Below are positions 7,092 to 63,963 of a DNA stretch of 64,000 nt, piece after piece (the stretch's first letter is position 1; each line of letters opens with the position of its first letter). Position numbers and translations under genes: made by a program. The notes under the pieces are model-generated. The model worked only from the letters and a program-made list of their open reading frames with translations, was not told the origin of the DNA and made no database searches. Source of the DNA: a virus (taxonomy: Duplodnaviria > Caudoviricetes). The stretch is taken from the IMG/VR virus record IMGVR_UViG_3300020577_005688, positions 77,351 to 141,350 of that record. One strand, written 5' to 3'.

Positions 7092-7955
7092 GTGGAAAAA
7101 GGTCATGTGATTGATGTGCTCGACCACGGGTACGTGAAGTACGTAGACTCGATGGGCTCAGATGAGAATGTCATCGAAGCAGCTCGAATGAGCACCGGAA
7201 GAGGCTTCGAAGGCTGGGAAAAAGATGCCGGGCTTCTCGATTTTCTCTGGAGAAAGAAACACTCAACTCCGTTCGAGATGGTGGAACTTGCCTTGGAAAT
7301 TCAGGCACCCATCATGGTCTTCCGAGAGTGGCAACGACACAGAACCCAAAGCTACAATGAGTTCTCTGCTCGTTACTCACAGATGCCGAACCTTCACTAC
7401 CTGCCAGACGCAAGTCGTCTGAAGAAGCAGAGCTCAACCAACAAGCAGGGTACTGGAGACGAAGAGTTCCCCCAAGAGTACATCGACATGACGTTGGAGG
7501 AACTTGAGTACGAGCAGAAGCAGACGTACAGCCACTACGAACAGATGTTGACTGAGGGTGTGGCGAAGGAGATTGCTCGACTCAATACTCCCGTCAGTCG
7601 GTACTCAAAGATGCGGGCCAAGGCCAACCTCAAAAACTGGCTTGGGTTTTTGAACTTGCGTCTTCGACCAAACGCTCAGTTCGAGATTCGAGTGTTTGCT
7701 GAACCTGTTGCTGACATCATCCGGAAGCTCTTCCCAAGGTCATACGACCTTTTCGAAGAGTACGACCTCTACGGCGTTTCCTTCTCAAGAACGGAGATGG
7801 CTGCAATCCGAGATGTCATCAAGACCATCCAGATGTCTCGTCGAGACATGATGGAACCATTCGTCACGAGTGCGAAGAAGCACAACATCGATGGACGGAA
7901 GTTGCAGGAGTTCATCGAGAAACTCGAAAAGGGTGGACTGGAGATTCTGTCGTGA
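7092..7955 (+). CDS. thyX: FAD-dependent thymidylate synthase
   Basis: AARMS, HSTPFE, RHRTQSYNEFSARY ThyX motif, AQFEIR. Confidence 0.95.
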   Translation: MEKGHVIDVLDHGYVKYVDSMGSDENVIEAARMSTGRGFEGWEKDAGLLDFLWRKKHSTPFEMVELALEIQAPIMVFREWQRHRTQSYNEFSARYSQMPNLHYLPDASRLKKQSSTNKQGTGDEEFPQEYIDMTLEELEYEQKQTYSHYEQMLTEGVAKEIARLNTPVSRYSKMRAKANLKNWLGFLNLRLRPNAQFEIRVFAEPVADIIRKLFPRSYDLFEEYDLYGVSFSRTEMAAIRDVIKTIQMSRRDMMEPFVTSAKKHNIDGRKLQEFIEKLEKGGLEILS

Positions 7956-8410
7956 GTGGGGAGAAGAAGTACAGGCAGTACATGAAGATGGTGTACCCAG
8001 TGCTTCCTCCGACCTCGAACAAAATCTACTACCGAGGAACCATCCTCACAGGCGTATCCAGGGAGTACGCAGAATCTTTCGCTGCCTGGGCTGCGAAGAA
8101 CCACCTGCATGAGATCAATGAGCTCAATCCAGATGGACTCTTCGCGCTCCATCTTCGCTTCTTCTTCAACACTCTCGTGAATGAGACCTACCAAAACGAG
8201 AACTTCCCTCCGTCAAAGAGAGCGAAGGAGAGGTATAAGAGGATAGACCTGACGAACAGGATTAAGCTTCTTGAGGACTGCGTTCGAGATGCAATCGATA
8301 TCGATGACTCTCGAACATTCGCAGCATCTCAAGAGAAGCATCAAGACCCAGATAAGGAAAGGGTCGAGATTGAGATTGAGGAGGTCAGCCCAAAGCTGTT
8401 CGGGGTCTAG
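7952..8410 (+). CDS. RusA-like Holliday junction resolvase
   Basis: PPTSNKIY and DLTNRIKLLEDC...IDDS motif. Confidence 0.7.
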   Translation: MSGEKKYRQYMKMVYPVLPPTSNKIYYRGTILTGVSREYAESFAAWAAKNHLHEINELNPDGLFALHLRFFFNTLVNETYQNENFPPSKRAKERYKRIDLTNRIKLLEDCVRDAIDIDDSRTFAASQEKHQDPDKERVEIEIEEVSPKLFGV

Positions 8411-8422
8411 TAAAGGACACCT

Positions 8423-8839
8423 TTGAGCGAAGACAAGAAGGTCATTCTTGGGGAAGTTTCAAAGTACTCGAACTGCCGACCCATCAAAGAAGACCCACAC
8501 ATCATTGAAGCCAAGCACAAGTCCATGTGCCTCATGAGACTCCGTGCTGAGTGCCACACTTGTCCGAACAGTAAGTTCACTCTTCTTTTCGACGTTCCAG
8601 AGAAGCGTTTGGAACAAGTGATGTGCCCTCGTTGGAAAGACGTAAGAGAGTTGTGGCAGGGAAAGAACCCAGAGTCCTACGTTGTAACGGAGCTTGCGAC
8701 CTGCAAAGAGAGACCATTCCCATTCTGCGGCTCGTGTCCATCCGTCGAAGAACTCAACGACCTTGGAATCGACAAGACGAAGGATGGGTGGTTATCGAGA
8801 TGGAAGCGCTTCAGAGATGAAGATGCATTGGAGGAATGA
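8423..8839 (+). CDS. Cys-rich hypothetical protein
   Basis: TTG start with SD AAGGA; several CxxC. Confidence 0.6.
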   Translation: MSEDKKVILGEVSKYSNCRPIKEDPHIIEAKHKSMCLMRLRAECHTCPNSKFTLLFDVPEKRLEQVMCPRWKDVRELWQGKNPESYVVTELATCKERPFPFCGSCPSVEELNDLGIDKTKDGWLSRWKRFRDEDALEE

Positions 8840-9159
8840 TGGACGACTCACTCTTGTGGGAGTGCAACGAGACTGAACTCCTGCATCTTGCTTATGAGCA
8901 GGGCCTCGGACGGTTGAAAGTGGGCCTCCCAAAGGAGACTCTCTTTCAAATCGTCCGTGGTGAAATCAACCCATCACCAGAGCACCTCTCGGAAACGAAG
9001 AACACGAGGGAGTTGCTTGAGAAGTTCATCGAGCGCCACTGGGAGAAGACCCGTAGCCAACTTCCTGGGTGCAATGGAAAATGTACTTCTTATCCTTGCT
9101 CTGATGGACGTCATGGGGCATGTTACGCGCCCAACAAACACCTCGTGAGTCTCGGATGA
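8836..9159 (+). CDS. hypothetical protein with C-terminal Cys cluster
   Basis: SD GGAGG; ATGA coupling. Confidence 0.65.
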   Translation: MMDDSLLWECNETELLHLAYEQGLGRLKVGLPKETLFQIVRGEINPSPEHLSETKNTRELLEKFIERHWEKTRSQLPGCNGKCTSYPCSDGRHGACYAPNKHLVSLG

Positions 9160-9371
9160 GGGGCTACTGTCTTAGCTGTACGCGAATCGCAGACTGTAAT
9201 GAAACAGATGTAGAGAAGGTGAAGTCAGACTACACGTGCCTCAGGTACGAGCCAGTCGAAGAAGCGGTGTTTCGTGCGAGAGAGTTCACCATCGCAAAGT
9301 ACGGAGACTCTCTCGCAATTCAGGCCATGCTGAATCGGCCATTACTCTCCAAAGGAGAAGATGATGAGTGA
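9156..9371 (+). CDS. small Cys-containing hypothetical protein
   Basis: ATGA overlap; YCLSC...C...C. Confidence 0.55.
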   Translation: MRGYCLSCTRIADCNETDVEKVKSDYTCLRYEPVEEAVFRAREFTIAKYGDSLAIQAMLNRPLLSKGEDDE

Positions 9372-10422
9372 GGGCATTAAGCTTCCTCCCGAGACTACGG
9401 GTCAAAAGTACTCGGAAAGGGAGCAAGCGTTCAAGAACTGTACGTTCTTTACGCTTCGAAAAGTTGCAACGGAAGGTCTGAAGATCGACACGGGTCAGAC
9501 CATCTACGTAAACGCGGACGGGAAACCGTTCTGCGACTACAACGACACCATCCGTGACCGCAATCTCGTTCGACAGAGGATCCTCGACTACGAGCTTGCC
9601 CAAGGTTGGATTGTCGATGACCGTGGGGCACAACAAGCTGTTGCTCAAATCGTCCAACCCGTTCCTCAACCCGCTGTTCCTGTGCAGGAGACCATGTCAA
9701 CTGTTCCAACTGTTCCCATCGCTGCTGCAATGATGACCATCAACTCCGCACCGGCTCCTACTCCACAGCCTCAACCGCAGCCACCTCCTGCAAGCGATGC
9801 CGGAGCTCCCACTGGAAAGAAGCGCCCCGGACCTCGTCTTCCTTCTGCAGTTGCCCCTCCGACAACGGCAGTCGCACAACCACAACCGCCTCCAGGAGCA
9901 ATGACGGTTCACGCACCCGTCGTCACTCCCGCCCCTGTTCAGGCAACTGCCACGATGACACCAACCATCATCGTGCCGGAGCAGACCCAAGTGCAGCCGT
10001 TCACTCCTCCCACTGCGATGCCAGCTCCTGTCTCAGTGAGGCCGTTCACTGTTCCTGCCGCCCCAGTTGCACAGGCTCCAGTGGCCGCCCCAGCCGCTCC
10101 TGCGGGTTCCGACAAGAAGCTGGACGCCATCGGAAGTGGTCTCGAAATCATCTCAAGGGATGTCGAGTCACACCGGAAGGACTTCTCCCAGTTCGTCAGC
10201 AACATGTCGGAGCAGGTCAACACCAACAACAAGAGCATCAAGGCACATGATGAGGCCCTGAAGGAAATCCAGAGAAGCCTCGATATTGTGTTGACTGCGA
10301 TTCACCACATCTACCTCACCATTCCTGGACTCCAGGCTGGGGCAGTTGAGGCGAAGGCCAACATCGGAACAGCTCCTGAGTTCCGAGAGTACATCGCGAA
10401 GTTCACTGTTCCGCGCCCTTAA
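9361..10422 (+). CDS. Pro/Ala/Gln-rich protein with C-terminal coiled coil (short frameshift product)
   Basis: 353-aa ORF, SD AAGGAG, low-complexity central linker. Confidence 0.8.
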   Translation: MMSEGIKLPPETTGQKYSEREQAFKNCTFFTLRKVATEGLKIDTGQTIYVNADGKPFCDYNDTIRDRNLVRQRILDYELAQGWIVDDRGAQQAVAQIVQPVPQPAVPVQETMSTVPTVPIAAAMMTINSAPAPTPQPQPQPPPASDAGAPTGKKRPGPRLPSAVAPPTTAVAQPQPPPGAMTVHAPVVTPAPVQATATMTPTIIVPEQTQVQPFTPPTAMPAPVSVRPFTVPAAPVAQAPVAAPAAPAGSDKKLDAIGSGLEIISRDVESHRKDFSQFVSNMSEQVNTNNKSIKAHDEALKEIQRSLDIVLTAIHHIYLTIPGLQAGAVEAKANIGTAPEFREYIAKFTVPRP

Positions 10423-54523: not shown

Positions 54524-54597
54524 ACGGCAGAAGCCCCACTGGTAAGGGTACGGGCCTCCAAAACCCGCCGCTACAGGTTCGAATCCTGTCTGCCGTG
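54524..54597 (+). tRNA. tRNA-Trp(CCA)
   Basis: Acceptor ACGGCAG/CTGCCGT, loop CT-CCA-AA, T-loop TTCGAAT; no encoded CCA end. Confidence 0.88.
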
Positions 54598-54598
54598 C

Positions 54599-54898
54599 AT
54601 GGAATCTCTAGAATGCGCTCTCACTTACAATCCCCAAGGATGGGGAATCTCAGACATTGAGTCTGTGGCACTTGCAATCGACAACTCACACGAGAAGGAT
54701 GAACCAGACTACACCTGGATTCTCGGAATGAAGTCTGGAGAGTGGTACGCTGTACGTGGGTGGCACGATTACACCGGATGGGATTGTCAGTCTGGTTTGA
54801 GCACGGAGAAATACAAAACAAGAGAAGAAGCGTTCGCAACTCTTGTTGACTGGGAACGAGACATCGTAGAGAAGAACGCGGTCGTAGCTCAGAGGTAG
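54599..54898 (+). CDS. hypothetical protein (starts 2 nt after tRNA-Trp, stop inside tRNA-Gly)
   Basis: 99 aa; W....MKSG.W....GWHDYTGWDCQ motif. Confidence 0.65.
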   Translation: MESLECALTYNPQGWGISDIESVALAIDNSHEKDEPDYTWILGMKSGEWYAVRGWHDYTGWDCQSGLSTEKYKTREEAFATLVDWERDIVEKNAVVAQR

Positions 54899-54949
54899 AG
54901 CGTCTGCTTGCCATGCAGAAGGACGAGGGTTCAATTCCCTCCGGCCGCT
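54878..54949 (+). tRNA. tRNA-Gly(GCC)
   Basis: GCGGTCG/CGGCCGC, TCTGC-TTGCCAT-GCAGA. Confidence 0.92.
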
Positions 54950-54955
54950 TCATAT

Positions 54956-55038
54956 GGGGATGTTGAGAGTAAGGTCACTCGGTTAGACTGTAAATCTGAC
55001 GTCTTCGGAACAACTCGGTTCGAGTCCGAGCATCCCCA
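54956..55038 (+). tRNA. tRNA-Tyr(GTA)
   Basis: GGGGATG/CATCCCC, CT-GTA-AA, long variable arm. Confidence 0.88.
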
Positions 55039-55141
55039 ACGCGAACTCTCAGACGGAAATCTGAGAGAGTTCATTGAAATTCGAATAGTAGTGGCATTGT
55101 CTTCTGGATTGGTTCTGTCCTCTCCAGTCTGGAAGACATTT

Positions 55142-55214
55142 GCGTCCATAGCTCAATCGGTAGAGCAAGCGCCTCTTAAGCGCGAGGTTGTGGGTTCAAT
55201 TCCCTCTGGACGCA
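55142..55214 (+). tRNA. tRNA-Lys(CTT)
   Basis: GCGTCCA/TGGACGC, CT-CTT-AA. Confidence 0.92.
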
Positions 55215-55215
55215 C

Positions 55216-55404
55216 ATGAGTGATGAAAAGAAGGAAGGCTGGGGTGTCTTGAATCTCGTGACAAAGAAGTACGAGCAGGCCAAGAAGACGAAGAAGGAGG
55301 CGATGGAAGTCGTTGACGACTTGAACTCAGTAAGCACCGCCTTGAAGTCGGAGACAAGGTACGCAGTCATTCCTGGCAAATTCAGCGAGGATCTCTTCAA
55401 GTGA
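55216..55404 (+). CDS. hypothetical protein
   Basis: ATG 2 nt after tRNA-Lys; coupled to the next gene. Confidence 0.6.
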   Translation: MSDEKKEGWGVLNLVTKKYEQAKKTKKEAMEVVDDLNSVSTALKSETRYAVIPGKFSEDLFK

Positions 55405-55652
55405 AATACGAGATTGTCAGTACCGAAGTGTTCATCTACCCACTTGGATTCGACATTCATTGGGTCGCAAAGAACTGGGCAGCCCTTCCTGGGAGCCCAC
55501 TCAGGGATATGCCGGTGTCCGGCATTTTGTCGTTTCAAAAGACTCGCGACGGTTTCACGAAAGTCAATACTGAGACCATGGGCGAGGAGTTTTGTACTGC
55601 GGTCCTTACTCAGTTTCTTCGAGACTCTCTGAAAGAGAGCGAGGAAAAGTGA
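55401..55652 (+). CDS. hypothetical protein
   Basis: GTGA coupling. Confidence 0.55.
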   Translation: MKYEIVSTEVFIYPLGFDIHWVAKNWAALPGSPLRDMPVSGILSFQKTRDGFTKVNTETMGEEFCTAVLTQFLRDSLKESEEK

Positions 55653-55891
55653 AGAAACTTCTAAGTGATAAGAAGAAGGTGGAGTTCATTCGCATCTGGA
55701 GTGACTGGTTCTACGACCACTCTTCTTCTTACCGAGGAGCACTCGGAGTTCAATTGGCCTATCTTTGGCCCGCAATAATCAGAGAACACCAAATCGAAGT
55801 CTCAGAAAGGAGCGCCATCGTGAAATTGCTTCGTAAACAGAAGGTAGCTCCAGACTCCGACATTTGGGGCTACCTAGACATCGTCGGATAA
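55649..55891 (+). CDS. hypothetical protein
   Basis: GTG with SD GAGG; stop 2 nt before tRNA-Lys(TTT). Confidence 0.55.
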   Translation: MKKLLSDKKKVEFIRIWSDWFYDHSSSYRGALGVQLAYLWPAIIREHQIEVSERSAIVKLLRKQKVAPDSDIWGYLDIVG

Positions 55892-55892
55892 G

Positions 55893-55965
55893 GGATCCAT
55901 AGCTCAGTAGGTAGAGCAGCGGACTTTTAATCCGAGGGTCGTGGGTTCGAGCCCCACTGGATCCA
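55893..55965 (+). tRNA. tRNA-Lys(TTT)
   Basis: GGATCCA/TGGATCC, CT-TTT-AA. Confidence 0.93.
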
Positions 55966-55966
55966 T

Positions 55967-56694
55967 TCTCACATTGTTGGAGGACCAATGGCTTGAGATA
56001 ACCTTTTAAACGTGGCGCATCCGAAACGCTCTGGCTTGGTGTAAGCGAGCTGAAGTGGTCAGCCCTCTCAAATCAAACCATGTACCGGTGTCGATATCGA
56101 GAGACGCACAAACTCTGCAGTACTCGTCAAGGCGTGGCTGAGCGGACCGTCGACTTATCAATCGATAGGCGGGATGGCACCTGCCGAAAATCCAGGGCAA
56201 AAATTCTAAGACGAGAGAGTTGAGGAGAGAACTCGCGATTCTCAGTAGGCGAGTTGGATGTTGGCCAGCATATAATTTGACTGAAACCTTTGAGATAGAT
56301 TGACTCCAATGATCATTACACAATGCGAGGCGCTCGGGACTGTGGTGTAAGCGAGCCGTGTTGACCCACGCGGTGGGCCGACGACATACGGACAACGGGG
56401 AAGGAACAGTCGAGACTACATGTTGACCGGGATCCGCCCCTCCTCCAAAGGAGACAGGCGTGAAGGTCGGGGTGAGAGCAATCACTGCGGATAGTTTCTC
56501 CGTTTACGCACAGGGCCGACAGTCCGGGTATTTACCGGAAGTTGGCTTGGGGATGCAGAGGTCGCGTTCTGCACTGGAACGAGCATAGCAGCTCCCAACA
56601 TGAGTGGAGCTAAAGAAGTGAACATCTTTCCCTCATATCTCAGCCTATTGTACATCCATGCGTGTACACTATGTTACTGGGATATTGAGGCATC
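55967..56694 (+). ncRNA. large (~730 nt) structured non-coding RNA candidate (GOLLD/ROOL-like context)
   Basis: No + strand ORF of 60 aa or more; many helices with G-U pairs; 14-nt direct repeat TGGTGTAAGCGAGC; bounded by tRNAs. Confidence 0.6.
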
Positions 56695-56695
56695 T

Positions 56696-56766
56696 GCGGG
56701 TGTAGCTCAATGGTAGAGCCACAGCCTTCCAAGCTGAGGACGAGGGTTCGATTCCCTCTACCCGCT
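56696..56766 (+). tRNA. tRNA-Gly(TCC)
   Basis: GCGGGTG/TACCCGC, CT-TCC-AA. Confidence 0.92.
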
Positions 56767-56780
56767 CTCTCTCAAGACAC

Positions 56781-56852
56781 AATTGATTCGTCTAGTGGTT
56801 AGGATACTGCCCCTTGAAGGCAGTGACGTTGGTTCGAATCCAACATCGAGAG
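56781..56852 (+). pseudogene. degenerate tRNA-Gln(TTG)
   Basis: Intact D, anticodon and T arms, but C33 (loop CC-TTG-AA) and unpaired acceptor positions 1-2. Confidence 0.65.
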
Positions 56853-56854
56853 TG

Positions 56855-57003
56855 AGGCGAGAATTCTGCATCGTGAGGTGCAGACAAAGAGTACCGCATT
56901 ACTGAAGCGTGAAACCTTCTGGAAGTGCGGAGGCAAGGGGGCCATGAGTACACGAACATCTTCGTGTATTGAATCCCCTAGGTCTCCAAGGTACTCTTTG
57001 CCT
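56855..57003 (+). ncRNA. ~150-nt multi-stem structured RNA candidate
   Basis: Perfect 11-bp CAAAGAGTACC/GGTACTCTTTG enclosing two hairpins; GTGA-capped hairpin 5' of it. Confidence 0.5.
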
Positions 57004-57065
57004 ACGGGACTTAGTGGTAAGACAAGAATCGAGAGGTATTCGGTTCTCACAAGAAGAGTCGACAA

Positions 57066-57329
57066 ATGGGCGTTCGTGCGAAGATGCGTTGTGTCGAAGT
57101 GTCAGAGAGAACCAGCGTGACTGGGGCCGGTCTTGTCGAAGCGAAGTACATCCGTCTCCAAGCTGTGTACGGTGGAGACGACGACAAGGAGAACAGGGAC
57201 TGGTCGAAGTGGACACCCTCAGGAGAGTTGGCAATGACAGTCACCAACCCTGACGCCTTCAATCAGTTCAAGATCGGCAAGTGCTACTTCATCGACATGA
57301 ATGAAGTCATCGTCGAGCCAGTCAAGTAG
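57066..57329 (+). CDS. conserved-type phage hypothetical protein
   Basis: VRAK.RC...L.AVY...EN..WSKWTPSG.L.M...NP.A...F..GK.Y..D. Confidence 0.75.
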   Translation: MGVRAKMRCVEVSERTSVTGAGLVEAKYIRLQAVYGGDDDKENRDWSKWTPSGELAMTVTNPDAFNQFKIGKCYFIDMNEVIVEPVK

Positions 57330-57437
57330 TTCAGATCGTCAGCAAACCCGTGCCCTGCGAAGAGCGATTGGCCTTGGTGATTCCACAAGAGTCTCTACGG
57401 GAATGTCGCGAGCCCCGGCGAAACTGGGGTGTAGTTT

Positions 57438-57510
57438 TGGAGAGTGGCGCAATTGGTAGCGCAGTGGATTCTGACTCCAAAGGTTGAAGGTTCAAGTCCT
57501 TCCTCTCCAG
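57438..57510 (+). tRNA. tRNA-Gln(CTG)
   Basis: TGGAGAG/CTCTCCA, TT-CTG-AC. Confidence 0.88.
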
Positions 57511-57511
57511 C

Positions 57512-57916
57512 ATGACCATTCAATACAAGAAGGACGCTTTTGTTTTTGTGTTTGGAAGTAACCTTGCCGGTGTACATGGGGCTGGGGCTGCTCTCTTTGC
57601 GAGAAGGCATAGAGGTGCAGTACCTGGGCAAGGAGTGGGGCCACAAGGAGAGTCGTACGCCATCCCAACCAAAGACGAGAGAATCGAGACTCTCCCTTTG
57701 GAACTCATCAAACCTCACATCGAAGACTTCTTTCGATACGCGGCGGCCAACCCGACAGTCTTGTTTCAAGTGACTCGAATCGGATGCGGTCTCGCCGGAT
57801 TTACAGACGAGCAAATTGCTCCGTTGTTCAAGACTGCACCCAAGAACTGCATCATGCCACTTGAGTGGCTTCCATTCGTTGGAGACTTCAAAACGTGGGG
57901 TTCATTTGACGCTTGA
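57512..57916 (+). CDS. A1S_2505-type phage protein (macrodomain-like)
   Basis: VFVFGSNLAGVHGAGAA...SYAIPTK...FQVTRIGCGLAGF..EQIAPLF. Confidence 0.8.
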   Translation: MTIQYKKDAFVFVFGSNLAGVHGAGAALFARRHRGAVPGQGVGPQGESYAIPTKDERIETLPLELIKPHIEDFFRYAAANPTVLFQVTRIGCGLAGFTDEQIAPLFKTAPKNCIMPLEWLPFVGDFKTWGSFDA

Positions 57917-58205
57917 AAGCATCCCGACCGACGTTCCTCAGATTTGCCCAAAGTGTGACTACGTGTTCGATCACGTCACTGCCGCCGACTCGGAGATGGG
58001 GAAACCGTCACCAGGAGACTTCTCCATCTGCCTCAACTGTGGGGTCGTTCTTCAGTTCAGTGAGAACATGACACAAGTAGATGCGTCCCCAGAAGACTTC
58101 GAGAAGCTCGAAGAAGGCGACAAGACTCTCATCTTGCGGATTGTCCACGCAGTGAAGAGTAGTCCGAGCTTCGGAAAACTCGTCCGAAGAGACAAGATTC
58201 AGTGA
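57906..58205 (+). CDS. small zinc-finger protein
   Basis: CPKC...PGDFSICLNCG; start uncertain (TTG 57906). Confidence 0.6.
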   Translation: MTLESIPTDVPQICPKCDYVFDHVTAADSEMGKPSPGDFSICLNCGVVLQFSENMTQVDASPEDFEKLEEGDKTLILRIVHAVKSSPSFGKLVRRDKIQ

Positions 58206-58212
58206 GCAGTAT

Positions 58213-58285
58213 TGGGGTGTAGCTCAATTGGTAGAGCGGCGGACTTTGAATCCGTAGGTTCTAGGTTCAAGCCCTAGCACCCCAG
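58213..58285 (+). tRNA. tRNA-Gln(TTG)
   Basis: TGGGGTG/CACCCCA, CT-TTG-AA. Confidence 0.92.
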
Positions 58286-58289
58286 TAGA

Positions 58290-58361
58290 GCCGACGTAGC
58301 ACAACGGTAGTGCATCTGATTTGTAATCAGGAGGTTGTCGGTTCAAATCCGACCGTCGGCA
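58290..58361 (+). tRNA. tRNA-Thr(TGT)
   Basis: GCCGACG/CGTCGGC, TT-TGT-AA. Confidence 0.92.
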
Positions 58362-58375
58362 TAGGCGTAGTGATG

Positions 58376-58384
58376 TGGTATAGT
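58376..58384 (+). promoter_or_regulatory. extended -10 promoter (leaderless geometry)
   Basis: TG-G-TATAGT ends 6 nt before ATG 58391; no SD. Confidence 0.5.
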
Positions 58385-58390
58385 AGCGGT

Positions 58391-58756
58391 ATGTCCAAGA
58401 AAATCCTCATCGTCGAAGACGACGAATCAGTTCAGATTCTACTCAAGCTCTTCTTGATTCGATTGAGCCACAACATCATCGAAGCAAAGAACGGACTTGA
58501 GGGAATCGGGATGGCGAGACAGTTCAAACCGGACGTCATCATTGCGGACTTGAACATGCCTATCTTGGATGGGATTGAGATGTTGAAGGTCTTGAAGGCA
58601 GACCCATCAACTTCCCATATTCCAGTTGTAATCTTCACTGGGTCTTCAGGCGAGCAGCAGCAGAGAGCATCTGAGGCAGGAGCCGTCACTGTTCTCTCAA
58701 AGCCCATCTCAAGACAAGACCTCATTCAGGTCATCGACTCAGTTCTTCAGAAGTAA
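58391..58756 (+). CDS. single-domain response regulator (CheY-like receiver)
   Basis: ILIVEDD, phospho-Asp in IADLNMP..DG, IFT, SKP. Confidence 0.9.
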   Translation: MSKKILIVEDDESVQILLKLFLIRLSHNIIEAKNGLEGIGMARQFKPDVIIADLNMPILDGIEMLKVLKADPSTSHIPVVIFTGSSGEQQQRASEAGAVTVLSKPISRQDLIQVIDSVLQK

Positions 58757-58831
58757 GTATCTCAAGCTAATCTGGTGAAAGCGACAGGCTGTTAACCTGT
58801 GTCAAGCAGGGTTCGATCCCCTGGAGATACG
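58757..58831 (+). tRNA. tRNA-Asn(GTT)
   Basis: GTATCTC/GAGATAC, ACAGG-CTGTTAA-CCTGT; A at position 8. Confidence 0.85.
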
Positions 58832-58834
58832 CAC

Positions 58835-58866
58835 GGCGTGGTTGCCAAGTGGGAAGGCGTCGGTCT
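58835..58866 (+). pseudogene. 5' half of a tRNA (Cys-like), broken at the anticodon loop
   Basis: GGCGTGG-TT-GCC-AAGTGGGAA-GGC-G-TCGGT-CT, then unrelated sequence; no 3' half found. Confidence 0.6.
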
Positions 58867-58879
58867 AGGATCCTGTCCT

Positions 58880-59374
58880 ATGACCAGAACCATTAAAAGA
58901 CCAGGAGTCGCGAAGGCAAACGTTGCCCGTCGTGAAGCGACGGATTCTAGTACAAGGATGAACGCACTCTACGAGTGGGAGAAATGGAAGCAGAATCCAC
59001 ATTTCACACTCGGGCTTGGTCTGTACATAGGAGAAGGGACTAAGACTCACCGAGAGTTAGTGTTCACAAACGCAGACCCTAACGTCATGCGTCTCTGGCA
59101 AGCGTGGTGCTCCGTATTCCTTCCAGAAGTGCCAATGAGTCTCTCCATCCAGATACCAACGGACGTGGATCCTTCAGAAGCTAAGAGGTTCTGGAAGAGA
59201 AGGCTTGGAATGGTACCTAGAATCTACCAAAGCAAAGGTGGGACAAAAGGGGTCGGGAAATTTAAGCATCGAAAGCTACCATTCGGAACAGCTCGTCTGA
59301 GAGCCGGAGTCGGTGGAACAGACGCGTTCGTGAAAATGGAATACTGGATCTCTCTTTGCCTTATGACCACATAG
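58880..59374 (+). CDS. LAGLIDADG-like homing endonuclease
   Basis: LGLGLYIGEGTK helix followed by LVFTNADP, as in single-motif LAGLIDADG-like proteins. Confidence 0.6.
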   Translation: MTRTIKRPGVAKANVARREATDSSTRMNALYEWEKWKQNPHFTLGLGLYIGEGTKTHRELVFTNADPNVMRLWQAWCSVFLPEVPMSLSIQIPTDVDPSEAKRFWKRRLGMVPRIYQSKGGTKGVGKFKHRKLPFGTARLRAGVGGTDAFVKMEYWISLCLMTT

Positions 59375-59395
59375 CGTGCTTCCGAGTGAGACCTC

Positions 59396-59626
59396 ATGGA
59401 CATCCTGAAGCTCGTTGTCTTGATACAGAGGTACAAATCCCTGTATGGGAAAGTTCAAGTAGTAACCATAGACAAAAGAGTTCCTGCTGGGAGCGGCGTA
59501 GCCTTCGTAGATACCAACAGCCTATTTACTCTTGCAGTGGATTCTGAAGAAAGTCGCCTCGTAGCCATAGACCTTCTTGAAGAGAAAAACCTCGTTGAAC
59601 TCAAAGGAGAGACCGCCATGACATAA
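59396..59626 (+). CDS. hypothetical protein
   Basis: 76-aa ORF. Confidence 0.45.
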   Translation: MDILKLVVLIQRYKSLYGKVQVVTIDKRVPAGSGVAFVDTNSLFTLAVDSEESRLVAIDLLEEKNLVELKGETAMT

Positions 59627-59644
59627 CCCTAACAAGAGGTTGTC

Positions 59645-59818
59645 ATGAAGAGAGGTCAGCAGTTCGGAACCTTCATCCGTGGTAAGGCTCGACTTCGAAA
59701 GAACAAGAAGAAAGAACTCAGTCGAGCAGAGAGGACTGAAGCGAAGAGGCAGTTGAAGAAAAACCCAGAAGAGGTAGAGACGAAACCTCGAAGGCGATAC
59801 TGGGGGTATGACGACTAA
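59645..59818 (+). CDS. 57-aa basic protein (below ORF-track cutoff)
   Basis: SD GAGG; MKRGQQFG...RRRYWGYDD*. Confidence 0.55.
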   Translation: MKRGQQFGTFIRGKARLRKNKKKELSRAERTEAKRQLKKNPEEVETKPRRRYWGYDD

Positions 59819-59824
59819 GAAGTA

Positions 59825-59897
59825 GGCCCCATCTTCTAATGGCTAGGATGCTAGATTCTCAATCTGGCGATCGAGGGTTCAAATCCCCGTGGGGTCA
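59825..59897 (+). tRNA. tRNA-Glu(CTC)
   Basis: GGCCCCA/TGGGGTC, TT-CTC-AA. Confidence 0.9.
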
Positions 59898-59899
59898 AC

Positions 59900-60250
59900 A
59901 TGAAATCCGGCATACACAGGAGCACACGAGCGAAGAGGCTCGCAGAGGTCCGAGCAGTCCATAAAGAAATAAACGACAGAACGGGCCTTATCGATTTTGA
60001 GGGAGCGGGGTATATCCCAGAGTCAGCGCATTCGTTCTTTCCTGGAGTAGATCGGATTGCCACGTACCCGGTCACTGACATGTGGAGTGCTATCCACTCA
60101 CTTCAGGTACTGGATGAACTTGATGAGTTCGAGCAGAGTGCATTGAGTGATTCGCATCGATTCGATGCAGGAGTGGCGAGCTTGATGCGTCGATATGACG
60201 AAGTGAGAGAACCCGAAACTGGTCATTGGTTTATCGGCCCTATCGACTAA
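59900..60250 (+). CDS. hypothetical protein (starts 3 nt after tRNA-Glu(CTC), stop inside tRNA-Glu(TTC))
   Basis: 116-aa ORF filling the space between two tRNAs. Confidence 0.55.
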   Translation: MKSGIHRSTRAKRLAEVRAVHKEINDRTGLIDFEGAGYIPESAHSFFPGVDRIATYPVTDMWSAIHSLQVLDELDEFEQSALSDSHRFDAGVASLMRRYDEVREPETGHWFIGPID

Positions 60251-60307
60251 AGGTTAGGTCGCCACCCTTTCAAGGTGTGAATCCGGGTTCGAATCCCGGT
60301 AGGGTCA
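60236..60307 (+). tRNA. tRNA-Glu(TTC)
   Basis: GGCCCTA/TAGGGTC, CT-TTC-AA. Confidence 0.9.
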
Positions 60308-60321
60308 TCTGAACGAAGTAT

Positions 60322-60395
60322 CTGGGTATAGCTCAGTTTGGTAGAGCGCTTGCCTTGGGCGCAAGAGGCCGCTGGTTCGAATCCAGCTACCCAGA
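60322..60395 (+). tRNA. tRNA-Pro(TGG)
   Basis: CTGGGTA/TACCCAG, CT-TGG-GC. Confidence 0.92.
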
Positions 60396-60396
60396 C

Positions 60397-60630
60397 ATGA
60401 AGACAGCAGAGAAGGAAGCAATTTGGGTGTGGCGTTTTGAGGATGCTCCAGAAGAGTATCAAGCTCTCTCAAACAATGGAGGAGATGAGGACTGGCTTGC
60501 AGTTGTGCCTTCCTCCTTCAAGGGAGTTTGGATTCCGTGGCTCGAAGGTGGGTCACCTTTCGGAGTCTGCGACGTCCAGATTTACACTCTGGAGAGTGGG
60601 CACCAAGTCTACATCGGGTCTCATTCATGA
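60397..60630 (+). CDS. hypothetical protein
   Basis: ATG 2 nt after tRNA-Pro; W.F.DAPE.YQ.LS.NGGDEDWLA motif. Confidence 0.65.
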   Translation: MKTAEKEAIWVWRFEDAPEEYQALSNNGGDEDWLAVVPSSFKGVWIPWLEGGSPFGVCDVQIYTLESGHQVYIGSHS

Positions 60631-60830
60631 AGTACGTACACACGAAGACCGGCAACATCTACGAAGTCCTCTCAAAAGAAGCTAAACACACGGAGACTCT
60701 CGAAGAGCTCGTTGTGTATAGGAGCCTCAAAGATGGCCGAGTTTGGGTGCGGCCACATGTGATGTTCTTCGGCTCCGTGAAAATCAATGGGGAGGAAGTT
60801 CCTCGGTTCCAGCCCATGTTCGAGGAGTGA
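60627..60830 (+). CDS. DUF1653-family protein
   Basis: Y.H.K.G..Y.V...A.HTET.EELVVY......WVRP..MF. Confidence 0.85.
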   Translation: MKYVHTKTGNIYEVLSKEAKHTETLEELVVYRSLKDGRVWVRPHVMFFGSVKINGEEVPRFQPMFEE

Positions 60831-60832
60831 AG

Positions 60833-61183
60833 ATGGCAAAAAGAAAACTGGGACTCTACTTCGACAAGAACGGAGTCGAGATCTCAATGCAGGAGATGGC
60901 GGCTCTAAGAGCCAACGAAGAGTACTCAACGATTCGGAGAACGGTCCTTCCGAATGGTTCTCTAGTCTCCACCGTGTGGCTTGGAATCGACCATGGATAC
61001 CAGTCGCCGGTACCCATCGTGTTCGAGACCATGAGCTTCAAGAGGGGCGAGAGTGGGGAGATCGATTGGGGTGGGGTCCACTCAAATCGTTACGCTACAG
61101 AGGAAGAGGCAATCAAAGGCCACGAAGAAATCGTGAAGCTGATGATGGAAGAAATCCCGCCACGTTCGATCGATCTGACATGA
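60833..61183 (+). CDS. conserved-type phage hypothetical protein
   Basis: SD GAGGAG; VSTVWLG.DH...P..FETM.F...RY.T.EEA..GH. Confidence 0.75.
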   Translation: MAKRKLGLYFDKNGVEISMQEMAALRANEEYSTIRRTVLPNGSLVSTVWLGIDHGYQSPVPIVFETMSFKRGESGEIDWGGVHSNRYATEEEAIKGHEEIVKLMMEEIPPRSIDLT

Positions 61184-61461
61184 CCAAAAAGCTCCGACCA
61201 ACAGACCTTCCGAAGTTCAGGCCAGGAGACAAGGTCATCCTCCAGCACGCAGATAAGGATGACCCCGAAGCTGCAGAGTTCGGAATCATGACGGGGAGGG
61301 AGTACGGAGTCATCGTTGCTACTTGGTGGGATGACTTCCTTGGAGCATATGACTGTTGGATTGCGTTCTACGGAAAAAGAGGCTTTCCGAAAGACCCTAG
61401 CAAGACAAAACCGTACATCTTGAAGTACTTCGAGACGAGCCTCACTGCGTGGAAGAAATGA
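61180..61461 (+). CDS. hypothetical protein (SH3/KOW-like)
   Basis: PKFRPGDKV; ATGA coupling. Confidence 0.6.
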   Translation: MTKKLRPTDLPKFRPGDKVILQHADKDDPEAAEFGIMTGREYGVIVATWWDDFLGAYDCWIAFYGKRGFPKDPSKTKPYILKYFETSLTAWKK

Positions 61462-61667
61462 GACTGAGCCTACGGTTCTTCAAATCAAGTGACGGGAAGT
61501 TCGGGTACAACTCAATCTTCGTTGGAGAGTTCAAGGAGAGGGAGCTGTGGTTTCAAACTCTGCCAATGAGTGAGTGGTACATCGGTCCTCGGCAGGTGTG
61601 GTACGACGGACCCATCAAGCTCTTTGGATTCGGGTTCTGCGAGTTTCTATGGCACTACCCAATGTGA
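61458..61667 (+). CDS. hypothetical protein
   Basis: ATGA coupling; aromatic-rich 69 aa. Confidence 0.5.
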   Translation: MRLSLRFFKSSDGKFGYNSIFVGEFKERELWFQTLPMSEWYIGPRQVWYDGPIKLFGFGFCEFLWHYPM

Positions 61668-61861
61668 AACGAAATCAACCCCAAGAACCTATCAAGCTCA
61701 GTGATGGGGTTGAGCCATGCGGAAAGCTCGGATGTGCCAGTCTTGCAGTGTTTGGCTACAGACTTTGTAGACCTCACATTGAAGAATGGAGAAAGAGCAA
61801 AGAGGCGTCAGAGAAAGTCTACGACCTCAGACCGCTCTTCGAGCAATGGCGGAAGAGATGA
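61664..61861 (+). CDS. small Cys/His protein
   Basis: GTGA coupling; C...GC......LC..H. Confidence 0.45.
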   Translation: MKRNQPQEPIKLSDGVEPCGKLGCASLAVFGYRLCRPHIEEWRKSKEASEKVYDLRPLFEQWRKR

Positions 61862-61866
61862 AGGAT

Positions 61867-61937
61867 GCGCCCGTAGTACAATGGTAGTACAATCGCCTGA
61901 TAAGCGATAAACGAAAGTTCGATTCTTTCCGGGCGCA
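61867..61937 (+). tRNA. tRNA-Ile(GAT)
   Basis: GCGCCCG/CGGGCGC, ATCGC-CTGATAA-GCGAT. Confidence 0.9.
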
Positions 61938-62018
61938 CTGTGGTCTCCTGAACTCGACATACGGAGGTGCTGGGAGCGTAAGCAGGGATGGCTGTCCCGG
62001 CCACACCAATGTATAAAT

Positions 62019-62091
62019 GGCGTTGTTCGTCTAATGGCTAGGACACGAGATTGTGGATCTCGTTATACGGGTTCGACTCCCGTACATCGCC
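62019..62091 (+). tRNA. tRNA-His(GTG)
   Basis: G-1:C73 identity pair, CGAGA-TTGTGGA-TCTCG. Confidence 0.9.
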
Positions 62092-62092
62092 C

Positions 62093-62233
62093 TGATTTAC
62101 CCGGCCGAAGAGTCCCTACACGCAAACTATCTAGGTTCGAGTCCTAGTTCTCGCGAAAGCGAAAATAGCCTAAGGGTAAGGCATCTGACTCTTAATCAGA
62201 CCAAACTTGTGGATTCCTCACTCGGGTGAATCA
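62093..62233 (+). ncRNA. Y-RNA (YrlA)-like RNA containing a circularly permuted tRNA-Lys(CTT) module
   Basis: Outer stem TGATTTACCCG/CGGGTGAATCA with GCCGAAG; inside, in order: T arm, acceptor stem capped by GAAA, D arm, anticodon arm; T-run after. Confidence 0.7.
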
Positions 62234-62249
62234 ATTTTTAAGTCGCAGA

Positions 62250-62321
62250 GGTTCGTTACGCATCTGGTGAGGCGACCGCCCTGTCACGGCGATGAGATGG
62301 GTTCAATTCCCATACGAACCG
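62250..62321 (+). tRNA. tRNA-Asp(GTC)
   Basis: GGTTCGT/ACGAACC, CT-GTC-AC. Confidence 0.88.
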
Positions 62322-62403
62322 TTCGAGCTAAATGTCAGACCACCTCGGTATAAGGAGGTTGGCGAGCATATCGTTCGCCTTCAACCAACACGAGGGGAAG
62401 TTC

Positions 62404-63276
62404 ATGTCCAAGAAGAAGATCCCGACGAAGACGGAGACGTTCAACAAGGAGAAGGCCGAGCAGACGGTGAAGGCTGCCTCCAACGTGACGATCGAAGGTG
62501 CTGTCAAGAAGATCACCGAGGTGAACCTCACCATCGGCAAGACGTTGAACGATGTCAGCCAGCAGCTCACGCAGCAGGTCAACGAGTTCACCAACATCTC
62601 GACGGCGGTCGAACTCAAGAAGACGGAGCTCGAACAGCTGCACGAGAAGGAGCTCGTTCTCCAGGACATCGAAGACCTCAAGGCACAGAAGGCCGAAGAA
62701 GAAGCGGCATACGAGACCCGTCGCATCGAGCTCGCCAACGAGCACGCGCGAGAGAAGAAGCAGTGGGAGTACGACTTCAGCATCGAAACCCGCAACAGGA
62801 ATGACGAGCTGAACGAGCAGATTCGCCTCAAGAAGCTCGAAGAGCGGAATCGCCAGGACGACCTCGAACGTGAGTGGAAGCGTCGTGGTGAAGAGCTGAC
62901 GGCCAGGGAGACCGAGTTCATGAACCTGAAGGCTCAGGTCGCCACCTTCCCCGAGAAGCTCGAAGCGGAGAAGAAGGAAGCCTCCAACGCTGCTGCCGCT
63001 GCGGTCAGGCGCGACTACGACCACAAGCTCGCCCTCCTGGAGAAGGACCGTGCCACGGAAAACCAGATCAACCTGTCGAAGATCGCGCAGCTCACCGACA
63101 CCAACAACAAGCTGGCTGCTCAGCTTTCTGCTGCCGAGGCTCGCATCGCCGAGAGCGAGCGGAACGTGAAGTCGATCGCCGAGAAGGCGCTGGAGAGCTC
63201 GGGTTCTCAGAAGACCCTGTCGGAGCTCCAGCTCATGCAGAACTCGCCGAACGGCTCCAACCGCAAGACGGTGTAA
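62404..63276 (+). CDS. long coiled-coil protein
   Basis: SD GAGGGG before ATG 62404; E/K/R-rich heptads; strongly G/C-ending codons. Confidence 0.8.
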   Translation: MSKKKIPTKTETFNKEKAEQTVKAASNVTIEGAVKKITEVNLTIGKTLNDVSQQLTQQVNEFTNISTAVELKKTELEQLHEKELVLQDIEDLKAQKAEEEAAYETRRIELANEHAREKKQWEYDFSIETRNRNDELNEQIRLKKLEERNRQDDLEREWKRRGEELTARETEFMNLKAQVATFPEKLEAEKKEASNAAAAAVRRDYDHKLALLEKDRATENQINLSKIAQLTDTNNKLAAQLSAAEARIAESERNVKSIAEKALESSGSQKTLSELQLMQNSPNGSNRKTV

Positions 63277-63283
63277 GAAGCAC

Positions 63284-63311
63284 AACCTGGAGGTCACTCC
63301 TCCAGGTTTTT
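63284..63311 (+). terminator. intrinsic terminator
   Basis: AACCTGGAGG-TCACT-CCTCCAGGTT followed by TTT. Confidence 0.8.
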
Positions 63312-63312
63312 A

Positions 63313-63385
63313 GCCAGTATCGCGTAGGTGGTCCGCGCGTCTGCCTGAAGAGCAGAAGGAGACTGTTCGATTCAGTCTACTGGCA
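63313..63385 (+). tRNA. tRNA-Phe(GAA)
   Basis: GCCAGTA/TACTGGC, TCTGC-CTGAAGA-GCAGA. Confidence 0.88.
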
Positions 63386-63386
63386 C

Positions 63387-63785
63387 ATGAGATCGTGTAG
63401 GCTATGTAAGAAGGACTTTCCATGGACGAGAGAGTTCTTTAATGGCTCTTCGAACATTCTCTCAACAACGTGCAAGCAGTGTCACAATGAACGGATGAAG
63501 AGAGTTGCGAGAGAAGTCAAATTACAAGCCACTCTCTACTACTCCAACGGCACAGGCGAATGTGAGTGCTGTGGAGAGTCTCATCTAGAGTTCCTAACTC
63601 TAGACCATACCGAGGGTGGAGGTTCTCTCCAAAGACGGTCCCTAAAGAGTGCCAGAAATACTGCTTACTGGGTGAGGAAGCACGGATACCCAAAAGGATA
63701 CAGAGTTCTCTGCATGAACTGTAATTTCGCAATTGGAAAGTTTGGGAAATGCCCTCACAATGACCGACCAAGTACCAGAAGTTGA
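63387..63785 (+). CDS. HNH-type endonuclease with N-terminal Zn finger
   Basis: CRLC...CKQC; CECCGE...LTLDH...YRVLCMNCN. Confidence 0.8.
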   Translation: MRSCRLCKKDFPWTREFFNGSSNILSTTCKQCHNERMKRVAREVKLQATLYYSNGTGECECCGESHLEFLTLDHTEGGGSLQRRSLKSARNTAYWVRKHGYPKGYRVLCMNCNFAIGKFGKCPHNDRPSTRS

Positions 63786-63963
63786 ACTTCCGAAGCTGTG
63801 TCCGAAGTGTGGAACAAAGACCATCTTCGGGTTCGGTCTGGCAGGAGGTGGAATGGGTCCTTATGTGGTGTGCGATGGGCCTCTGGGACAAGGTGAGTGC
63901 GACTTCTTCTTGAAGAAAACATCTCAAAAGAAAGACAACCGTGAAGATTCTCGTTCTCGATGA
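63760..63963 (+). CDS. small zinc-ribbon protein
   Basis: CPKCG...GFGLAGGG.G.Y..C....C. Confidence 0.55.
   Translation: MTDQVPEVELPKLCPKCGTKTIFGFGLAGGGMGPYVVCDGPLGQGECDFFLKKTSQKKDNREDSRSR

Follow-up and report, generated by a model that had tools for sequence, protein, structure and literature searches.

Genes that begin directly at the 3′ borders of CCA-less tRNAs in a phage tRNA cluster, and a possible route to leaderless messages

The DNA analysed here (the window, 64,000 nucleotides) is the last 64 kb of the 141-kb virus contig IMGVR_UViG_3300020577_005688, the completeness of which is 75% by CheckV. The subject is a tRNA cluster in the window, in which several protein genes begin almost directly behind a tRNA. 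Between 54524 and 63386, 17 tRNA genes were detected by ARAGORN, all on the + strand, as are all the other features of the region. The Rfam tRNA model found the same 17 genes and a weaker tRNA-like element at 56783–56849. The scores of the tRNAs by this model are 42–76 bits against a cut-off of 29 bits, and the tRNAs are apparently functional rather than mimics. An encoded CCA is absent after every one of them (17/17). The ends given by ARAGORN take in the C after the discriminator, and the discriminator positions were taken from the ends of the Rfam model.

Six of the tRNAs run into an open reading frame (ORF). They are tRNA-Trp(CCA) (54524–54597), tRNA-Lys(CTT) (55142–55214), tRNA-Gln(CTG) (57438–57510), tRNA-Glu(CTC) (59825–59897), tRNA-Pro(TGG) (60322–60395) and tRNA-Phe(GAA) (63313–63385), where the last position of each is the discriminator according to ARAGORN and Rfam. 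The junctions read, in this order, G-C-ATG, A-C-ATG, G-C-ATG, A-AC-ATG, A-C-ATG and A-C-ATG. In five cases a single C (54598, 55215, 57511, 60396 and 63386) separates the discriminator from the ATG of an ORF of 62–134 codons, and behind tRNA-Glu(CTC) the spacer is AC (59898–59899). ATG codons followed by at least 40 open codons occupy 0.56% of the + strand positions in this region, and the chance that at least five of 17 tRNAs share one given offset is P = 3e-8. A Shine–Dalgarno (SD) core, searched as GGAG, GAGG or AGGA within 18 nt upstream of the ATG, is found at none of the six junctions (0/6), whereas 46% of the first start codons of this phage have one, compared with 12% of internal decoys. 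The 20 nt before every junction ATG are instead the T arm and the 3′ acceptor strand of the tRNA. An initial annotation of the window had reported the five one-C junctions, the sixth with AC, the lack of CCA and of SD, and the paired tRNA strand upstream of each ATG. The sequence and the tRNA ends given by ARAGORN and Rfam bear out all of these.

The genes behind the junctions are arranged in blocks. The Trp-abutting ORF (54599–54898, 99 aa, a conserved family) ends with a TAG located 21 nt inside tRNA-Gly(GCC) (54878–54949), which is followed by tRNA-Tyr (54955–55040). The Lys block (55216–55891) consists of the 62-aa junction ORF (55216–55404) and the ORFs 55401–55652 and 55649–55891, connected by GTGA overlaps; its last stop lies 1 nt before tRNA-Lys(TTT) (55893–55965). 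In the Gln block (57512–58205), the A1S_2505-family gene (57512–57916) is overlapped by a zinc-ribbon gene (57906–58205), and tRNA-Gln(TTG) and tRNA-Thr(TGT) (58213–58361) follow. The Glu-abutting ORF (59900–60250, 116 aa, a conserved family) has its stop 15 nt inside the next tRNA. The Pro block (60397–61861) contains six genes (60397–60630, 60627–60830, 60833–61183, 61180–61461, 61458–61667 and 61664–61861). The first abuts the tRNA, and the others are linked by ATGA or ATGTGA overlaps or have an SD. The Phe block (63387–63963) is formed by a putative HNH endonuclease gene (63387–63785) and an overlapping gene (63760–63963). The coupling inside the blocks by overlaps had been described in the initial annotation and is confirmed for GTGA, ATGA and ATGTGA, as are the stops that abut the next tRNA (55891/55893 and 58756/58757). 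Several stops are located 0–6 nt before the next tRNA.

The junction ORFs are real genes. The gene 57512–57916 scores 152.1 bits against the A1S_2505 family (NF049995, cut-off 45), with residues 11–119 covering the profile positions 1–109 of 109, and it matches phrog_2072 with E = 1.7e-46. According to these matches, its product is assigned to the A1S_2505 family of phage non-structural proteins. The gene 63387–63785 matches phrog_2255 (HNH endonuclease) over residues 1–113 with E = 5.5e-14; it has a CxxC at residues 4–7, and no Pfam or NCBIfam match was found. For the Trp ORF, 18 homologs were found, and residues are invariant from position 4 onwards. Five homologs of the Glu ORF are 65–87% identical to it. 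The Pro ORF is matched in other phages as well, and the alignment to one of these homologs starts at residue 1. Three of the junction ORFs (Trp, Lys and Gln) were compared between the window, a third relative and the relative G001 (IMG/VR 3300017774_005745, a complete genome of 196.8 kb with terminal repeats, with about 80–89% protein identity to the window). The ratio of nonsynonymous to synonymous substitution rates (dN/dS) is 0.03–0.36 at dS 0.5–2. Purifying selection and the A1S_2505 and HNH matches thus support the view in the initial annotation that these ORFs are genes. It had also considered that the true starts might lie further downstream. Conserved residues or domain edges are, however, already found 4–13 residues after each junction ATG, and no SD-led in-frame start precedes the conserved parts in the junction ORFs.

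Gene callers have stretched database homologs of the Trp and Glu ORFs (P0002, P0004 and P0024) by 20–35 residues into the tRNA. The frame in which the tRNA is read differs between the window and the relative L091, as the spacer is 1 nt in the former and 3 nt in the latter. Because the relatives read the tRNA in different frames, the upstream extensions are artefacts. The Trp ORF of this lineage, which abuts a tRNA, lacks an N-terminal domain (about 40 residues, with a CxxC motif) that its more distant homologs possess; those homologs belong to phages that bear an integrase and have no tRNA cluster.

The layout is conserved in the relatives. In G001, 28 tRNAs are present in the same region, and eight of them abut an ATG-ORF at 0–1 nt. 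Three of these pairs are orthologous to pairs of the window. At tRNA-Pro and tRNA-Phe of G001, neither the tRNA sequence nor the gene is that of the window, and still the ATG is again one base (T) past the discriminator. Further relatives were obtained by protein look-ups (L091/L223, L092/93, L094, L221/L222 and L226); a metagenome scan contributed two short contigs only. In total, 16 distinct tRNA–gene pairs were collected in the lineage. All of them (16/16) have ATG at 0–3 nt past the tRNA, mostly as Y-ATG, and the junctions persist through synonymous saturation. The initial annotation had named the spacing in related phages as a check; the 0–3 nt spacing proves to be strongly enriched there. 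Moreover, the junction was re-created with different genes after the swap of tRNA and gene, as in the Pro and Phe modules of G001 and at PDDEXK_5 and HNH insertions. PDDEXK_5 genes lie directly after tRNA-Gly(GCC) and tRNA-Asn in L091 (8066–8444), L226 (215–622) and L221 (10001–10435 and 14846–15226). In L221, a deletion has fused the first 28 codons of one PDDEXK_5 gene to the homolog of the Glu ORF, and tRNA-Glu(CTC) is lost.

Three states of the HNH gene are found, as would suit a mobile endonuclease gene. It is absent from L223 (4413–4530), which has another tRNA-Phe variant, it is present in the window (63313–63963), and a remnant of eight codons is left in L221 (13807–13950). In L223, tRNA-Phe abuts the gene that the window carries behind the HNH gene, and in the window the HNH gene has taken over the tRNA-abutting position. 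In L221, the deletion of the HNH gene leaves an ORF of eight codons, in which the tRNA-abutting ATG is retained and which ends in an ATGA on the start of the next gene. The HNH gene travels with its own variant of tRNA-Phe, as would be expected if a homing endonuclease co-converted the markers that flank it. At tRNA-Pro, most of the old copy has given way to another tRNA-Pro in L221 (10921–11030) and L226 (1540–1650). What is left of the old copy is its final 27 nt, from the T arm and acceptor strand, together with C-ATG, and in L226 a different Cys-rich gene (MKFCRSCDCELS) is found behind this remnant junction.

The frequency in other phages was estimated with two unbiased IMG/VR samples, namely the neighbours of A1S_2505 homologs and the loci with a common D-arm word. 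The loci were chosen independently of what follows the tRNA, CCA-less tRNAs were eligible, and an ORF of at least 50 codons was counted. In these clusters, four of 159 eligible tRNAs abut an ATG-ORF at 0–3 nt, and 25 have an ORF at 10–30 nt. By contrast, 6/14 eligible tRNAs of the window and 8/21 of G001 abut at 0–3 nt, and almost nothing is found at 10–30 nt. The difference between the lineage and the unbiased samples is significant (Fisher p = 2e-5, 3e-6 and 2e-6). About four in ten free-standing tRNA genes of the window phage and its relatives run into an ATG. These results indicate that the tRNA–ATG layout is a trait of the lineage and is not typical of phage tRNA arrays at large.

The layout recurs in some other lineages, and no phage-wide enrichment is claimed. 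In the unrelated L115 (IMGVR_UViG_3300035698_009625, 29% GC, positions 7795–9926), five of seven tRNAs are followed by ORFs starting as C-ATG, CC-ATG or CT-ATG, one of which matches a phosphatase/polynucleotide-kinase-like PHROG from residue 5. Abutting ORFs of L007, L080, L115 and L173 match PHROG families from residues 1–5. Xanthomonas phage X1 gives the best A1S_2505 match among isolates, and its layout differs. An apparent phage-wide peak at 0–3 nt came from a set picked through one offset-1 ATG and was discarded as lineage-biased, the unbiased sets giving the 4/159 above. A control with ORFs diverging from tRNA 5′ ends was also discarded; its apparent enrichment came from neighbouring tRNAs that were read in antisense across CAT spacers. 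In dense tRNA arrays (e.g. L113), the spacer between tRNAs is often exactly CAT or CATA past the discriminator, so that antisense 'ORFs' seem to start at the 5′ end of the next tRNA.

The initial annotation had treated the region as a single operon. All the features lie on the + strand, and few promoter or terminator matches are found in the region. Promoter- or terminator-like signals are present inside it (58356–58384, 62347 and 63284–63308), and to judge from these the stretch is not clearly one simple operon. A response-regulator receiver gene with an upstream element occupies 58376–58756, and its stop abuts tRNA-Asn(GTT) (58757–58831). An extended −10 sequence TGgTATAGT (58376–58384) ends 6 nt before the ATG at 58391, and a −35-like hexamer is located inside the 3′ end of tRNA-Thr (region 58356–58393). 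TGgTAWRGT-N6-ATG is kept at this gene in four relatives (G001, L091 and L221/L222), while the N6 varies. The gene is therefore a candidate for a promoter-made leaderless mRNA, and the conserved spacing suggests that the host translates leaderless mRNA. Behind the Pro block, tRNA-Ile, tRNA-His and tRNA-Asp are found within 61867–62321 with tRNA-like debris in between. A separate unit (62347–63312) follows, with the motif GGTATAAG at 62347 and an SD-led coiled-coil gene (62404–63276). It is closed by a strong terminator-like hairpin (63284–63308), the T run of which ends 1 nt before tRNA-Phe.

How could the junction genes be translated? Since the 20 nt upstream are the T arm and the acceptor strand, a ribosome cannot load on the folded precursor, and since the start codon adjoins a stable helix and has no SD, another route that exposes the AUG is needed. 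A precise cut at the 3′ border is the only processing route that would give both a usable tRNA and an intact ORF. We propose the following steps. The cluster would be transcribed as long tRNA–mRNA precursors, and a host tRNA 3′-processing endonuclease would cut at the 3′ edge of each CCA-less tRNA. The candidate enzyme is of the RNase Z/BN type, or an activity like the one that cleaves precursors in actinomycetes at the C74/C75 bond. The fragment released on the downstream side would carry a 5′ monophosphate and begin with AUG (cut after Y74) or Y-AUG (cut after the discriminator N73). It would then be translated by the leaderless pathway, which uses 70S ribosomes and depends on AUG. The later genes of each block would be reached through ATGA or GTGA coupling or by their own SD, and the tRNA would be completed by the host CCA-adding enzyme. 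No match to PolyA_pol/CCA-adding or Lactamase_B_2 (RNase Z-like) families was found in G000 or G001. As the phage thus encodes neither an RNase Z-like nor a CCA-adding enzyme, host enzymes would act.

The position of the ATG may reflect the tRNA. Of 38 tRNAs in the lineage that have no gene behind them, 36 carry C or T at position 74. Because a pyrimidine at this position is general in such tRNAs, the pyrimidine of the spacer would be a requirement on the tRNA side, and the ATG would stand at +2 rather than +1 because position 74 is kept as a pyrimidine. Differential RNA sequencing (dRNA-seq) has shown that tRNA precursors of P. acnes and S. coelicolor are cut endonucleolytically at the C74/C75 bond, and repair by the CCA-adding enzyme was proposed (PMC3848588, PMC4681348). 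By analogy, the phage precursors may be cut after C74 instead of after the discriminator, which would leave an exact 5′-monophosphate AUG.

There is good support for the layout, both as anatomy and as a trait under selection; the mechanism is a proposal. We infer the co-transcription, the cut, its position and the leaderless translation from the sequence, and we consider it probable that tRNA excision yields leaderless messages here, as in mitochondria. Several points weigh against this proposal. The terminator-like hairpin stands directly before tRNA-Phe, and the folding energy of the first 40 nt is the same for junction genes and for other genes. In E. coli, short 5′ extensions already lower leaderless translation, as Krishnan and co-workers reportedly found in 2010, and a cut after N73 would thus be suboptimal. 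Besides the Trp and Glu ORFs, with stops 21 and 15 nt inside the next tRNA, several real ORFs end 10–22 nt inside the next tRNA, also in relatives that have another tRNA downstream. Cleavage by RNase P at such sites would yield non-stop mRNAs. Thus, processing cannot be both complete and fast at every junction; at these sites it would be either incomplete, ordered or wasteful. Finally, the gene g5 of L221 persists behind the 27-nt remnant of tRNA-Pro with an SD-less leader of about 36 nt. None of the homologs of g5 in other phages is located in a tRNA cluster.

Three other explanations of the junctions were weighed against tRNA excision. The first genes of the blocks might be placed by compaction and cassette traffic, in which modules of tRNA and ORF and homing endonucleases insert or recombine at tRNA borders of a squeezed genome and are translated independently of SD and of any tRNA cut, from RNA that is unprocessed or processed in another way. 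The adjacency would then reflect the assembly history of the DNA. We regard this as unlikely, though it explains the joint movement of tRNA and gene. The tRNA and the abutting gene are swapped together in the Pro, Phe and Glu(CTC) modules, and HNH and PDDEXK_5 genes are repeatedly found at the junction. Stops overlap tRNAs and genes overlap each other, which is extreme packing, and about half of the phage genes have no SD core anyway. The persistence of g5 without a complete tRNA also fits. Under compaction, however, the offsets should be small but scattered and the start codon could be of any kind, whereas 16/16 junctions have ATG at 0–3 nt and the zone of 4–30 nt is almost empty. A start codon set against a stable helix would block the loading of 30S subunits. 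The ATG is retained after the deletion of the HNH gene, and non-mobile genes (A1S_2505 and the small conserved ORFs) abut tRNAs as well.

Transcription might alternatively start at the A of the junction ATG from a promoter within the 3′ half of the tRNA, in which case the pyrimidine spacer would be the Y(−1)R(+1) context of the start site. Nearly all the spacers consist of C or T, and the response-regulator gene of the same cluster has a conserved extended −10 that places +1 at the A of the ATG. At the junctions, however, the 7–12 nt upstream of the ATG are acceptor strands that differ between the tRNAs and contain no TANNNT. A genome-wide search for TANNNT or GGTANNN[GT] at leaderless spacing matched only the response-regulator gene. 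The pyrimidine at position 74 is equally general in tRNAs without a following gene. Promoters of this kind are therefore a highly improbable source of the junction messages. That the starts are mis-called or the ORFs are not genes, with a true start downstream, read-through from upstream or no expression at all, can hardly be believed. The stretched database homologs would fit such an error, and the Trp and Pro ORFs of the window are formally open into the tRNA. Against it stand the purifying selection, the differing tRNA frames of the window and L091, the lack of an SD-led in-frame downstream start before the conserved parts, and the early conserved positions (the A1S_2505 domain from residue 11, the HNH CxxC from residue 4 and conserved residues from 4–13).

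A wider form of the excision proposal is also conceivable, and we hold it tentatively, with less confidence than the mechanism at these junctions. Excision of tRNAs may be a regular route by which phages obtain translatable leaderless mRNAs, with the cut after pyrimidine-74. The tRNA–gene units would then be portable cassettes free of promoter and SD, exploited by homing endonucleases. The output of accessory genes would be tied to tRNA maturation, and the trait would be a sign of a host that translates leaderless mRNAs efficiently. If tRNA excision operates as proposed, prokaryotic systems would have a third way of making leaderless mRNA, in addition to promoters and toxin nucleases, and bacterial viruses would have a counterpart to the tRNA punctuation of mitochondria. 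Dozens of small accessory genes lie in phage tRNA arrays, and their expression in the absence of a promoter or ribosome-binding site would be accounted for. So would the joint travel of tRNA and gene and the settling of homing endonucleases exactly at tRNA borders. The tRNA-Y-AUG junctions could serve as compact parts for processing and insulation, and the trait may help to infer the translation biology of the host. For annotation, gene callers mis-place the starts at the junctions, which is a systematic error.

Other elements of the cluster are as follows. Between tRNA-Lys(TTT) and tRNA-Gly(TCC), a stretch of 730 nt (55966–56695) contains no ORF. It is kept at 70–77% identity in L221, L091 and partly G001, despite the synonymous saturation of coding regions. 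Rfam gave no match for this stretch, and it does not resemble RNAX, the stable 719-nt RNA of T5 that lies beside tRNA-Arg. The tRNA-like element at 56783–56849 (45 bits by Rfam) was missed by ARAGORN, and its anticodon loop has no U33; the same slot is occupied by a His(GTG)-like tRNA in L091/L221 and by a Gln(TTG)-like tRNA in G001. The tRNA at 60236–60307, in which the Glu ORF ends, was called SeC(TCA) by ARAGORN in the window and likewise in L221–L223 and L226, while the ortholog in G001 reads Glu(TTC). Its identity is ambiguous because two registers of the anticodon stem fit the window copy equally well, and it may be a tRNA-Glu(UUC) or an opal suppressor.

The lineage has no close isolate, as the DNA polymerase is at most 33% identical to those of known phages. 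L221 (NCBI SSEG01000002.1, 52 kb) is filed under a Spirochaetes metagenome-assembled genome (MAG). It is actually a phage of this lineage, with which it shares the DNA ligase, a YpsA/DprA-like gene, the tRNA cluster and an rIIB-like gene, and its placement is probably a binning artefact. The ribonucleotide reductase (RNR) of the phage is 58% identical to the copy in a Bacteriovoracaceae MAG, which is not a relative of the phage. The nearest named Atlas cluster for RNR is mostly from Actinomycetota, and no conclusion on the host is drawn. A WhiB gene was looked for in the phage and was not found.

Three components of the proposal are already known: mitochondrial tRNA punctuation, promoter-made leaderless mRNAs and the C74/C75 cut. 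The punctuation of animal mitochondrial transcripts by tRNAs was reportedly described by Ojala, Montoya and Attardi in 1981. As in animal mitochondria, the CCA-less tRNAs of the phage flank ORFs that have no ribosome-binding site, with 0–3 nt on the 5′ side of the ORF and 0–6 nt on the 3′ side. If the precursors are processed, cuts by RNase P and RNase Z would give leaderless or nearly leaderless mRNAs in the phage too, where the arrangement is known from its sequence. Unlike mitochondria, this is a bacterial double-stranded DNA phage in which contact with a tRNA is limited to the first gene of each block, and the others are polycistronic and either coupled or SD-led. The stop codons of the phage are complete, and some are located inside the next tRNA, whereas mitochondrial stops are completed by polyadenylation. 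The phage stretch also has internal promoter- and terminator-like signals. Leaderless mRNAs of bacteria include that of lambda cI and those of a large share of actinobacterial genes. Like these, the junction genes of the phage have no SD and start with AUG (16/16 in the lineage), and dependence on a 5′-terminal AUG would apply to them. The known leaderless mRNAs arise by transcription initiation, which gives a 5′ triphosphate, or, controversially, by MazF, while a tRNA cut is proposed here.

In plant mitochondrial t-elements and in MALAT1–mascRNA, a tRNA-like fold sets the end of a neighbouring RNA. The t-element of Haloferax is another tRNA-like fold used as a processing signal (PMC4946936). 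Unlike t-elements, which are usually non-functional tRNA mimics, the phage tRNAs score well and are apparently functional. In our literature search, no description of tRNA excision making leaderless mRNAs in phages or bacteria was found, and the papers on the C74/C75 cut drew no link to downstream genes (PMC3848588, PMC4681348).

Among phages, the long co-oriented tRNA arrays of T5 (NC_005859) and T4 resemble this cluster in having small ORFs, HNH homing endonucleases and stable RNAs. All the tRNAs of T5, however, encode CCA, and the downstream genes of T5 start 16–37 nt past the discriminator with visible SDs. Many promoters are annotated in T5, and no T5 gene abuts a tRNA. The CCA-less tRNAs of T4 need the host RNase BN/Z and the host CCA-adding enzyme. 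The layout is also found in the Streptomyces phage NootNoot (MF347636, cluster BE1), which was cultured on S. griseus. It is unrelated, has a high-GC actinomycete host, uses GTG as well as ATG starts at the junctions, and has a smaller share of abutting tRNAs; its genome announcement does not mention the layout. The same N73-C-ATG or N73-C-GTG is nevertheless present at tRNA-Glu(CTC), tRNA-Lys(TTT), tRNA-Phe, tRNA-Leu(GAG) and tRNA-Leu(CAA) of NootNoot. C74 is found in 40 of its 41 tRNAs, and four of the five junction genes are already annotated as coding sequences that begin at the very next base behind the tRNA feature.

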